Assembly: GCA_000004695.1 (NCBI GenBank)
Contig: CM000152.2
Coordinates: 2,400,001 to 2,464,000, forward strand
Direction: 5' to 3'
Length of the DNA stretch: 64,000 nucleotides
Origin: Dictyostelium discoideum
Taxonomy: Eukaryota
The notes beneath the pieces are model-generated. The model was not told the origin of the DNA. It saw nothing but the letters and a program-made list of their open reading frames with translations, and did not search any database. The position numbers and the translations under genes were made by a program. Shown piece after piece: positions 1,090 to 52,792 of the stretch. Each line of letters starts with the position of its first letter. Position 1 is the stretch's first letter.

Positions 1090-1096
<7 letters not shown>

Positions 1097-1215
1097 TGGA
1101 AAATATCAACTTCGCGCCATATTTGTAAGGAAATAAAAAAGCCTAAAAAAAAATTGTGGAAGATATCAACATCGCGCCATATCGAAAGGAAAATATAGAA
1201 GCGTAAAAAAAAGCC
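1090..1215. repeat. Two tandem copies, about 59 bp apart, of a GC-containing element (attgtggaaRatatcaacWtcgcgccatat) in the intergenic region upstream of the HMG-box gene
   Basis: Copy 1 is at about 1094-1122 and copy 2 at about 1153-1181, with 29/31 identity. Each copy is followed by gcctaaaaaaa. It is the only CG-rich sequence in an otherwise poly-A/T region. Confidence 0.7.
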
Positions 1216-9824: not shown

Positions 9825-10612
9825 ACCACCTTTGGAAATTAATTTATTTATATCCACAAGAAATGATCATTTAAGTGGGAAGAAAAGTAAGAAATTCTGT
9901 TTATTTTTTTTTTTTTGTTTTTTTTTTTTTTTTTTTTTCTCAAAAATTTCCCAAAAAAAATAAAAAATAAAAAATAATAATAGTAATAATAATAATAATG
10001 ATAATAATTCCAAATACTAATTTATTTTGAGTATTGTTTTAATATTTTAACTACAAATATCTAAACGAAAAAAATTTAAATTTTAAAAATAAAAAAAAAA
10101 AAACTAACGAACATTTTTTTTTTTATTTTTTTGAATTTTTTTTTGCCGCTCTGAAAAAATTCAAATTCAAATTTTTTTTCGACGTTAAAAACAACTAATT
10201 TTTTTTTTCAAAAAGTAAAAATCCAAAATGAAAAAAAAATTGTGTGTGTTGTTTTACTTTAGTGCGAGAAAAATTTGAAAAATTTCAAAAAGTCAAAAAT
10301 ATTTAAAGTTTTTTTTTTTATTTCATTATTCTCCATATCACACAAAAACAGTTTAAAGTATAATTTTTAATGTAAGTCGACTTTTTTTTTTTTTTGATAA
10401 CAACTAAATTATACACTCTTTAATTTTATTACATTATTATTATTTAAATTTCTATATTAAAAAAAAAAAAAAAAAGAAAAAAATAATAAAAATTACAGTC
10501 ATATTTATATTTTTAAACCAAACAATTTATTAATATATAATTTTTTTTATTTATATATTTAAAAAATAAATAGTATTCATTACCAATTTTTTTCAATAAA
10601 TAAATTTTAAAA

Positions 10613-11077
10613 ATGTCAGAAACCAAACCAGCCTCATCCAAACCAGCCGCTGCTGCCAAACCAAAGAAAGTCATTCCACGTGTAAGCAGAACAGGTGAAC
10701 CAAAGAGCAAACCAGAATCACGTTCAGCTCGTGCCGGTATCACTTTCCCAGTATCTCGTGTTGATAGATTATTACGTGAAGGTAGATTCGCTCCACGTGT
10801 TGAAAGTACCGCACCAGTCTATTTAGCTGCCGTCCTTGAATATTTAGTATTTGAAATTTTAGAGTTAGCTCACAATACTTGTTCAATCAGTAAAAAGACC
10901 CGTATCACACCACAACACATCAACTGGGCCGTCGGTAATGATCTTGAATTAAATTCTCTCTTCCAACACGTTACCATCGCCTACGGTGGTGTTTTACCAA
11001 CTCCACAACAATCCACCGGTGAAAAGAAGAAGAAACCATCAAAGAAAGCAGCTGAAGGTTCATCTCAAATCTATTAA
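10613..11077 (+). CDS. H2AX: Histone H2A variant H2AX
   Basis: Histone H2A fold: [54 protein letters not shown]...[34 protein letters not shown]. The extended C-tail ends ...SSQIY, an SQ-x-hydrophobic motif as in H2AX. Lys/Ala/Pro-rich N-terminal extension. Single exon. Confidence 0.88.
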
Positions 11078-11128: not shown

Positions 11129-11508
11129 CAAATGTACATAATAATCATTCCGCATATATAAAAAAAAAAAAAAAAATTGAATATCATAGTAAAATATCAT
11201 ATTTAATTTTTAAATAATTTAAGTATGTGTGTTGTTTATTTTATACAATTGATTAATAATAATATCAACTGTTTTTATAACAAAAGGTTTTTTTCAAAAC
11301 CACCACAAAAAAACAAATTTAAATTTCATAGCTTATATAAATATTCTATCTTTTTTTATTTTAAAATTAAAACTTGTAAAATTATCATTTTCACAAAAAA
11401 AAGAGGTAATACCACAAAAATTTTTAAAATATTTTTTTTTTATTTTTTTATTTTTTTTTTTTGAAAAGTTTCAATGTTTTATTTTTTTTAATTGTTAATT
11501 TAAATGTG

Positions 11509-49616: not shown

Positions 49617-50296
49617 CTTTTTTATTTATTTGATTTAATTTATTTCGAAATAAATAAAAAAAAAAAATAAAAAAAAAAAAAGAAAATTTTATTACAAAAA
49701 AAAAAAAAAAAAAAACTAGACGAAATGAAAAAAAATAAAAAATAAAAAAAATAAAAATAAAAAAAAATAAAAATGAAAAAAATCAATAGTTTTTTTTTTA
49801 TGAGAAATTAAACAAAAATATAAATAAAAAAAAGGTGGGATGGTAATGATTTATTAAAAATGATATTAAATAATTTAAATTCTATTAAAATAAAAATTGT
49901 TGTTATTTGATTTTTTTTTCTTTTTTTTTTTTTTTTTTGGAAATCCCTTAATAATTTATTTATTAAAAATTAATTGATAAAATAAATAAGAAAAAAGCTA
50001 AAAATGTCAATTTAAAATTATAAAGTATCATTATAAATAAATACAATCTTAAAAATTCAAACAAAATAATGAATCATTTATAATTGTTTTAAAGTTTTTT
50101 TTTTGTTTTTTTTGTTGTTGTTTTTGTTTGTAGTAGGAATGGTTTAGTTGTTTTTTGTTTTGTTGTTGAAGCAAAAAAACTCGAGTTGGAACTTCAAAGA
50201 ATTGAAAAAATGATTTAAAAATTTTTGTTTCACCAAGATTTTAAAAACTTTTAAAATCGGCGCCAAAAATGAATAAAAAAATATTTTTTTCAACAA

Positions 50297-50368
50297 GTTT
50301 CGATAGCTCAGTGGAAGAGCAAGCGACTGCAAATCGTTAGGTCGCCAGTTCAATCCTGGTTCGGAACT
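50297..50368 (+). tRNA. tRNA-Cys (anticodon GCA)
   Basis: Acceptor GTTTCGA/TCGGAAC, D-arm GCTC-AGTGGAA-GAGC, anticodon stem AGCGA/TCGTT with loop CTGCAAA (GCA), T-arm GCCAG-TTCAATC-CTGGT. Followed by T6 at 50372-50377. Confidence 0.88.
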
Positions 50369-50404
50369 TTCTTTTTTGTATCCCAATTTTCCGAACTTCG
50401 TAAA

Positions 50405-52792
50405 TTTTTTAATGTAAACCAGGCCCAGATGGAATTCCAAACTTATTCTACATAACACACAAAGAAAAACTAGCTCCAATACTGGCCTCAGCATTCAACG
50501 ACACTCTAAGAAATCCTCATCTAATTAGCAAAAATTACAAAGAAGGCCTCATTATCACGATACCTAAAAAGGGAGACCCCGAACTAATCAAAAACAGAAG
50601 ACCAATTACACTGGCTAACTGTATATATAAAATCCACTCAAAACTAATAAACAATAGAATAATCCCAATACTAACGAAAGTGATCAACCACAATCAAAAA
50701 GGTTTCGTACCAGGCAGATTCATTCTAGATAATATCATATCAATGAACGAATTAATCAACTATTGTAATGATAAAAGAATTAACGGAATAATTACACTAT
50801 ATGATTTCGAAAAAGCCTTTGACTCGATCTCACACGGTTCAATACTCAGATCACTACAACACATCAACATTCCAACCAATATAATCAACCTGATAATGAA
50901 TCTACTCACCAAATCTGAAGCAAGAATTGAAATTAATGGTAGAACTACTATACCCTTTGAGATCAAAAGAGGAGTTAAACAAGGAGATCCACTATCACCC
51001 ACCCTGTTCGTCCTTGTAATAGAGGCTTTAGCTAGAAAAATTTTACAAGATGACCGAATTACTGGCCTTCCTCTAAACAACAGCAACCACAGAGAGAAAT
51101 TCCAAAGCTTTGCAGACGACTCGGCTTCAATGGTCCCAGACTCTCAACAACTTGAATTAGTACTACAACACTTCAATTCATTTTGCAAAGCCACTTCCTC
51201 AAAACTAAACATCGACAAATCTTCATCAATTCTTATAGGCAACCCAGACAATACCAACCAAAGAATTCCAATATCTACAAATCCAGAAAGATACTTGGGA
51301 TACTTCTTCACAGGCAAAGGGATAACAAGAAAAATGCCAGAAATATTAAACACAATAAGATCATCCTTAGTACTATGGAAAACCACTGACTCAACAATCA
51401 AAACCAAAACCAACATCCTCAAAGCATTCGCACTCTCTAAATTAACCTACTATTCATATGTAGAGAACTTTAAGGAAGAGGAATTAAACCAAATCAATAA
51501 ATTAGTCGAATGGTTTTTATCGGCACCAAACAACAAAAATGCTAGTGGATTTCAAGTTATTAATTTAATGAGAACCAAAAGAGCAAGATACCCACTAAAA
51601 GTAGGAGGCTGGAACATTTGGAATATAGAATTGAGACAACTGGCGCAGAAACTTTGGATCATAAACCAGTTCATCCTAGCACTAGAAACCAAACAAACAA
51701 ACTCATCTCATCACAAAAGCTGGGAATATCAGATCCAAAAAAACAAATTCACATCCAGATACCTAAAAGAAAACTTAGACGAATGGAACAAAATAAGAAT
51801 AAAAAAAGCAATCTTCAACAATAATCTCACATCCATAAAAAACGAAAATGGACAACCACTTTCACTGGCAGAATGGTATACCACAATTCAAGACCAAAAT
51901 CCAACCATCCCTAAAACGGAATTCCAATCATCTCTAAACTTAAGAGGCTACAGCTATAATCAACTCTTCAACAACATACTGAAGATAAAAGACCCTAAAA
52001 CAAGAGACACAATGTTTAGATTCCATGCCAGATGCCTTCCAATAAACTACCTTCACAACAAACAATGCCCACTCTGCAAAGAAGATATGAGCAAAGACCC
52101 ATACGGTCACCTGTTCTTCTCATGCAAGAAAACAAAACAATTCATAAAAATAAATAAACTCAAAAATTTCATCTATATTACCACAGGCAAAGGTAAAAAC
52201 TGGCACCATACAAGAATTAGGCAAAATAACAATTTCATTAATAGAATAACTCCAAAATTATCACCGACAGCCAAAAAAGATCAAGAAGTGAATGCAGATT
52301 ACGCCAACCACAGATTCCACAAAGAATACTTTGAATGGAACTATAAAGCAATAGACTATGATCTAACCAGATCATTCGCATATAGAAACCTAATGGCCCT
52401 TATCCTCCACAACATTTGGATTTGGATTTGCAATCAAATATACAGTGAAGATCCTTTAACAAATGAATCACTATCATACAGCTCCCTTCTAAAGAAATGG
52501 CACAAATTGGCCACTCTAGAATACATCAAAAAAGCAAAAGATCTGAAAAACTTATCAGCAAAAGACCATAATAACTTCAAAGATCCTAAGATCCTTCTCA
52601 CTTCAACGATCAAGCTAAGAAAAACAACAGCTAATTACTATTGTATTCCAGAATCATCTCTCCCAAATATTATATCTTTTGATCAATTCATATGATTAAA
52701 ATAACCCTTCAGCTTAAATGATAAGCCTTTAAATAAATATTAAATAAAACTCGTATTAACACAGATGGACATATATCAATCTTGTTAATCCA

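Follow-up and report, generated by a model that had tools for sequence, protein, structure and literature searches.

A tandemly duplicated, conserved CGCGCC-containing element upstream of an HMG-box gene in Dictyostelium discoideum as a candidate two-part regulatory module

The intergenic region upstream of an HMG-box gene on chromosome 3 of Dictyostelium discoideum contains a duplicated element with a CGCGCC core, which is real, evolutionarily conserved and duplicated in one lineage. It was analyzed within a 64,000-nucleotide stretch of that chromosome, hereafter the window, together with the orthologous regions of related genomes. The element is probably an ordinary regulatory site, and our preferred reading, to which we assign a rough probability of 0.55 on the strength of sequence comparison, is that it is a regulatory module of the HMG-box transcription-factor gene (1539-2075), situated distally upstream and composed of two adjacent short protein-binding sites, here termed half A and half B. 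As such, the feature adds an example to a familiar class and does not represent a new kind of system.

By alignment, the window is near-identical to the region at ~2.48 Mb of CM142509.1 in assembly GCA_054883475.1, and the locus is anchored through the h2AX primers (DDB_G0279667, PMC2995078), which find exact matches at 10613 and 11077. The h2AX coding sequence (10613-11077) is followed after ~200 nt by a match to the histone 3' UTR stem-loop (RF00032, Rfam) at 11281-11326 on the + strand, which scores 34.5 bits where the gathering score is 34. The 1.15-kb intergenic region (395-1538) is bounded on one side by the 3' end of a Tudor-SN/SNase gene (Q54WH0; + strand, stop codon at 392-394) and on the other by the HMG-box gene (+ strand, ATG at 1539), which is followed by a SAP-domain gene on the - strand. 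The HMG-box gene, the presumed target of the element, is placed between Q54WH0 and h2AX, and its identifier is assigned only from this position near DDB_G0279667; a literature search with the candidate identifiers DDB_G0279659 and DDB_G0279661 found no paper, and the exact protein sequence has no entry in the protein cluster collection. The 178-aa product combines a long N-terminal half rich in Asn/Asp with a C-terminal HMG box, whose best matches (E 1e-16 to 1e-9) and best solved relatives are SRY/SOX proteins and not chromatin HMGB proteins. Hence, the argument of a first-pass annotation of this DNA, that a chromatin HMG-box gene is a plausible S-phase target, is weak. The box contains a PPNAF motif and ends after 58 of the 69 Pfam positions, and no orthologues of the gene were found outside the D. 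discoideum complex, D. citrinum and D. firmibasis. The transcription start site is likely to lie at the T-runs of 1380-1475, which would put the element about 300-400 bp upstream of it.

The degenerate 30-mer ATTGTGGAARATATCAACWTCGCGCCATAT matches the + strand with 0 mismatches at 1093-1122 and 1153-1182; no further copies with up to 3 mismatches occur in the 64 kb, and dinucleotide shuffles yielded matches in 0/100 cases, which confirms the duplicated CGCGCC element reported by the first-pass annotation. Its dimensions need adjustment. The copies are identical at 28/30 positions, or at 29/31 when a shared preceding A is counted, which upholds the identity given for a "31-bp" element, although the pattern as written has 30 letters and the true duplicated unit spans ~60 bp. 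The reported separation of 59 bp is near the start-to-start period, which is 60 bp, with a gap of 30 bp between copies; the reported location about 350 bp upstream of the HMG-box gene is replaced by copy starts 446 and 386 bp upstream of its ATG. The description of the surroundings as more than 90% A/T is roughly right, given that the intergenic region has 14% G+C and the flanking 60-nt windows 3-18%; the element region itself reaches 23-33%. TCGCGCC is present at just these two sites in the window (0.02 expected), CGCG at three sites, i.e., one besides the two copies, and SGCGCS likewise at three, two of which are these copies.

Each unit consists of a 30-nt core and a homologous, far more diverged 3' tail of the form AAGGAAA...AAGC[CG]T followed by an A-run, all described here on the + strand. 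The core of unit 1, ATTGTGGAAAATATCAACTTCGCGCCATAT (1093-1122), contains half A as TTGTGGAAAATATCAAC (1094-1110), the older module, and half B as TTCGCGCCATA (1111-1121), with the E2F-like TCGCGCCA at 1112-1119, and is followed by the tail TTGTAAGGAAATAAAAAAGCCT and its A-run (1123-1152). In unit 2, the core ATTGTGGAAGATATCAACATCGCGCCATAT (1153-1182) contains half A as TTGTGGAAGATATCAAC (1154-1170) and half B as ATCGCGCCATA (1171-1181; TCGCGCCA at 1172-1179); the tail CGAAAGGAAAATATAGAAGCGT with its A-run is succeeded by a third partial GCCT plus A-run at 1213-1223, the whole occupying 1183-1223. The head-to-tail order of the copies, the period of 60, the alignable tails, the A-run before each unit and the differing number of units in related lineages together identify a tandem duplication. 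The poly(A) run before unit 1 (1065-1092) is shorter by 5-6 nt in the corresponding locus of GCA_054883475.1 (L001, 2533-2555), which is identical apart from this, a difference which reflects either polymorphism or homopolymer assembly uncertainty. An apparent degenerate third copy at ~885-915 (TTGAAAATATCGAG...) was rejected, since its local alignment score was reached by 103 of 300 block shuffles; the shared AAAATATC is treated as chance on this ground and because the same 8-mer is found 19 times in the window. On the - strand, ATGGCGCGAAGTTGA is a 4-codon ORF, the + strand of the unit has no ATG, and a splice-donor-like GTAAGG in copy 1 is absent from copy 2.

The orthologous intergenic regions of seven genomes, located through the flanking proteins, allow the history of the element to be followed: the AX4-like assembly introduced above (L001), D. 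discoideum FIR (L004) and FIW (L013), D. cf. discoideum FIZ (L011), D. citrinum FIV (L003) and FIU (L012), and D. firmibasis (L002). The Tudor-SN, HMG and SAP genes have the same order in all seven, and the element lies 310-580 bp 5' of the HMG ATG throughout. Over aligned columns, intergenic identity to the window is 0.92 in FIR and FIW, 0.83 in FIZ, 0.70 in D. citrinum and 0.67 in D. firmibasis. In Polysphondylium violaceum and an environmental dictyostelid contig, Tudor-SN is followed by a PRELI gene, so that the gene order no longer matches and the region cannot be compared there.

There is one unit in D. firmibasis and in each of the two D. citrinum strains, two in the AX4-type genome, FIR and FIW, and three partial ones in FIZ. 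AX4-type copy 2 is identical to copy 1 of both FIR and FIW (ATTGTGGAAGATATCAACATCGCGCCATAT), and this sequence is taken to be ancestral. Two changes are private to AX4-type copy 1: G>A at 1102, and A>T at 1111, which creates the TT of TTCGCGCC; all other aligned copies, including that of D. citrinum, have G and A, and both states are thus read as derived. Copy 2 of FIR and FIW, ATTGTTGGGGATACAAACATCGCGCCATAT, has five changes, all within the first half, such that half A is lost (TTGTTGGGGATACAAAC) and half B kept. FIZ has one full unit, a second, TTTTGGAATATTATATCGCGCCATAT, in which B is kept and A decayed, and a third, ATTGAGGGAGATATTGGCAT, in which A is kept (ATTGAGGGAGATAT) and CGCGCC lost. 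Both D. citrinum strains have the unit ATTGTGGAAGATATCAACATCGCGTCATTA, with the core CGCGTC and the half-B variant ATCGCGTCATT, and a half A that agrees with TTGTGGAAGATATCAAC at 17/17 positions; D. firmibasis has TTTGAGGAAGATGTGAATATTCCAACAATC, in which half A is recognisable at about 13/17, and its region lacks CGCG, with no SGCGCS in 6.5 kb. Half B in the form ATCGCGCCATA is thus seen in no genome outside the D. discoideum complex, and each of the four genomes within the complex has it exactly twice.

The two halves and the tails differ in their variability. Across six non-redundant units of the D. discoideum complex, variable columns number 1/11 in half B, 10/17 in half A and 19/24 in the tails; Fisher's test of half B against the tails gives p ~1.5e-4, a value to be read with boundaries set post hoc and about three independent lineages. 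TCGCGCCA is intact in all eight copies of the four genomes of the complex. Further, the element is the longest exact intergenic block common to D. discoideum and D. citrinum (28-32 nt, with 10 G/C), the next being 19-26 nt (814-839) and all others at most 12 nt, which makes a cis-regulatory role likely and bears out the earlier proposal that the element is more constrained than its flanks. Between the AX4-type genome and FIR, however, the two 30-mers differ at 7/60 positions, no better than the 8% intergenic background, so that constraint can be claimed with confidence within the complex only for half B and, for half A, only across species. Two other stretches of this intergenic region also stand out. 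The second-longest conserved non-coding block, TTTTATCGTTAGATATTTTCATTCTA (814-839, +), is matched at 26/26 positions in FIU and 19/19 in FIV and partially in D. firmibasis. On its 3' side come a long T-run (845-877) and a partly conserved stretch (880-930), and the block could represent an additional regulatory site or a start site missing from the annotation. Additionally, TTATAATAACTCCCATTAAATCTTTTAATTTT (1007-1038, +) is identical in FIZ, and its first 15 nt are shared exactly with D. firmibasis, with which the window has no other exact block in this region of 11 nt or more and 3 or more G/C in common.

These patterns are consistent with a history in which half A (TTGTGGAAGATATCAAC) would be the ancestral site, single in D. 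firmibasis and D. citrinum, beside which half B (ATCGCGCCATA) would have arisen or been perfected. A tandem duplication of the ~60-bp unit would then have taken place in the common ancestor of the D. discoideum complex, with unequal exchange between the A-runs on either side as its probable mechanism. Selection may since have maintained both B sites and no fewer than one A site, while the tails and the second, redundant A site drifted. The duplication itself is neither very recent nor ancient, since it predates lineages whose intergenic regions differ by 8-17% and is absent from D. citrinum and D. firmibasis. Its presence in all four genomes of the complex at that divergence agrees with the first-pass annotation in speaking against very recent slippage.

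A purely neutral account, in which the units are a functionless tandem duplication, i.e., a G/C-rich relic between A-runs that was multiplied by slippage or unequal exchange and looks conserved through close kinship, is unlikely but has several observations on its side. The A-runs beside every unit and the third partial GCCT/A-run mark slippage-prone DNA; the number of units varies, from one in D. citrinum through two in AX4, FIR and FIW to three partial ones in FIZ; half A of copy 2 has changed at five positions in FIR and FIW; and the differences between the AX4-type and FIR 30-mers equal the background rate. However, D. citrinum is close to saturation in this region (0.70, with many gaps) and nevertheless retains the 28-32-nt exact block with its 10 G/C, half B is invariant in 8/8 copies next to tails that vary in 19/24 columns, and the composition of this 86% A/T DNA leads one to expect that unconstrained CpG-containing G/C runs would decay. 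The loss of the second A site in two lineages with both B sites kept is what would be expected of independent selected sites and not of neutral DNA. Considerably less probable still is the notion that the 30-mer derives from a transposable element or other dispersed repeat, a reading which is unsupported: it has only the two local copies in 64 kb at up to 3 mismatches, none outside the orthologous position in ~70 kb of compared loci, and none in the retroelement ORF region of the window; it occupies the same syntenic position in three species, and a 21-mer from it had 0 matches in the metagenome collection.

An equally improbable alternative is that the units encode small non-coding RNAs or serve as promoter elements of such genes. 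The 11-nt motif of Class I RNAs is CCTTACAGCAA, and the - strand of each unit, which ends in at least 9 T, holds CCTTACAAATA (8/11 to that motif). Upstream lies a DUSE-like TCCCATTAA (1017-1025, +, within the block at 1007-1038; 7/8 to [AT]CCCA[CT]AA), and at 1090 a TGTG-box-like AAATTGTG, which differs from AAATGTG by one inserted T. [quoted passage not shown] Neither copy 2 nor the D. citrinum unit has the CCTTAC motif. Neither strand of 400-1600 has an Rfam match at E up to 10, there is no match to Class I RNA (RF01414) at the gathering score in the whole window, nor to any other Rfam family at that score in this region, and neither the single units nor the two together fold better than shuffles on either strand (z -0.6 to +1.7). 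A Class I RNA gene was accordingly rejected on account of the motif mismatches, the wrong spacing and the lack of an RNA body, no Class I stem or 11-nt motif following the element. A second DUSE-like sequence, TCCCAGTAA, is found at 1227-1235, with no non-coding RNA detected nearby.

If the element is a regulatory module as we favor, the factor that would read half B is most likely an E2F/DP heterodimer, given that TCGCGCCA belongs to the TSGCGCSA type of E2F core; we take it to be the inner 8-mer core of the classical DHFR E2F site TTTCGCGCCAAA. This is the best single candidate, albeit a tentative one resting on motif resemblance. The E2F-only core has been given as NNSGCGSN and the family consensus as GCGSSAAA (PMC4862756). 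An SGCGS core is present in both copies, as ATCGCGCC on the + strand and as ATGGCGCG on the - strand, and GCGCCATA agrees with GCGSSAAA at 7/8 positions. The 7/8 match to TTTCGCGC reported earlier holds for copy 1, but only through its derived TT; the other copies, as ATCGCGCC, agree with TTTSSCGC at 6/8, and no copy has the full TTTSSCGC or GCGSSAAA, exact matches to TTTSSCGC being found in the window only at 10142 and 50260, outside the element. The former, TTTGCCGC (10142-10149, +), lies ~470 bp upstream of the h2AX start codon. The latter, TTTGGCGCC (50259-50267, -), has a GGCGCC core, as does no other exact E2F-consensus site of the window, and lies 30 nt upstream of a tRNA-Cys (50296-50369), just 3' of which is a reverse-transcriptase ORF (50680-52695; Pfam RVT_1), a context typical of a tRNA-targeted retroelement. 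Classical S-phase genes, sought as positive controls for E2F sites, are limited to h2AX in the window.

The fuller form of this idea, in which the CGCGCC core is an E2F/DP site, the HMG-box gene is under RblA/E2F S-phase control and the duplication was kept for two cooperating sites, is possible though doubtful. Dictyostelium does have E2F (DDB_G0284129), DP (DDB_G0276799) and RblA, as the first-pass annotation held, and RblA represses S-phase and mitotic genes (PMC3386910); moreover, the two B sites are kept in all four genomes of the complex even where half A decays. On the other hand, the core at the orthologous position, present in 8/8 copies of the complex, reads CGCGTC in the two D. citrinum strains, which breaks SGCGS on both strands, and is absent from D. 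firmibasis; the TT of TTCGCGCC is found in one copy only; the invariant flank is CATA as opposed to the AAA preferred by E2F; the site is far from the likely start site; and the SRY/SOX affinity of the HMG box weakens the argument from chromatin proteins. The earlier suggestion of an RblA-regulated target finds no support in the table of RblA-repressed genes (Strasser et al. 2012, Table S2, PMC3386910; gene sheet apparently complete), which has no DDB_G02796xx or DDB_G02797xx identifier, h2AX included, and in which the sole HMG entry is ctf4, a comparison that depends on the position-based identifier of our gene. The same paper contains no E2F motif analysis and defines no Dictyostelium site. 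The earlier E2F/Rb interpretation is thus partly supported: SGCGS on both strands speaks for it, the lack of core conservation in the sister species and the absence of any E2F resemblance in half A do not, and the E2F reading stands as a candidate.

Factors other than E2F could in principle read half B, though we regard this as distinctly less likely; these would be a MADS-box protein (SrfA/Mef2A), through CCATAT as a half CArG box, or an undescribed CGCG-binding factor. Copy 1 offers CCATATTTGT, which agrees with CC(W)6GG at 9/10 positions, and FIZ unit 2 offers CCATATATGA, 9/10 to CCATATATGG, a motif enriched in the accessible chromatin of multicellular stages (PMC8094536); more generally, the invariance of half B runs through CCATA, beyond what E2F would need. 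However, copy 2 reads CCATATCGAA (6/10 to CC(W)6GG) or CCATATCGTA, which is no CArG box, the full palindrome is found in no copy, and a MADS-box reader leaves the invariance of TCGCG unexplained. B-box/TFIIIC, the CAMTA CGCG-box, MCB/SCB, YY1-like GCCAT and CDE/CHR were also compared by eye and none fits all copies, the consensus sequences CGCGAA and ACGCGT being taken from PMC4862756.

Placed beside known systems, the element resembles homotypic site clusters, which arise by lineage-specific tandem duplication of transcription-factor sites. Here, too, a ~60-bp unit is repeated head to tail between A-runs, the copy number varies among close species, and redundant parts decay while one of each is kept; there is no difference, only an ordinary process in a particularly clean form. 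Short G/C-containing elements are known from A/T-rich Dictyostelium promoters, including the G-box/CAE bound by GBF and the TTGA repeats bound by STATa. The present element resembles them as a short G/C island in 86% A/T DNA a few hundred bp 5' of an ATG and as a direct-orientation repeat, but differs in that it fits none of their motifs, half A containing GATATC and TTGTGG with neither a G-box nor a TTGA direct repeat. Compared with E2F/DP sites (TTTSSCGC/GCGSSAAA, e.g., the histone-cluster GCGCGAAA and the DHFR site), it is alike in having SGCGS on both strands, A/T-rich flanks and two sites 5' of a gene whose product is a nuclear DNA-binding protein, in an organism with E2F, DP and an Rb orthologue. 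It differs in that no copy has the full T-run/A-run flank (CAT or CTT on one side, ATA on the other), in its fusion to an older conserved half of no E2F likeness, in its lack of conservation in the sister species, and in its distance of ~300-400 bp from the presumed start site.

A further evolutionary reading of the element would be that, in the D. discoideum complex alone, an E2F/DP-type site was gained beside an older conserved element and subsequently doubled, wiring a SOX/MATA-like HMG gene to RblA/E2F. We consider this improbable, but if true it would be a datable rewiring of the cell-cycle regulon between very close social amoebae, with half-sites visibly partitioned among units, and the HMG orthologue of D. 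citrinum and D. firmibasis would lie outside the RblA/E2F network. If E2F/DP does read half B, the HMG gene would have a lineage-specific, doubled E2F input. More generally, if functional, the module would be a compact two-part element, and a comparison of seven close genomes would trace how it was born, duplicated and in part lost. It would also be convenient for reporter dissection, in an organism in which few factor-site pairs are defined in promoters, and would provide one concrete candidate sequence for what Dictyostelium E2F/DP binds.
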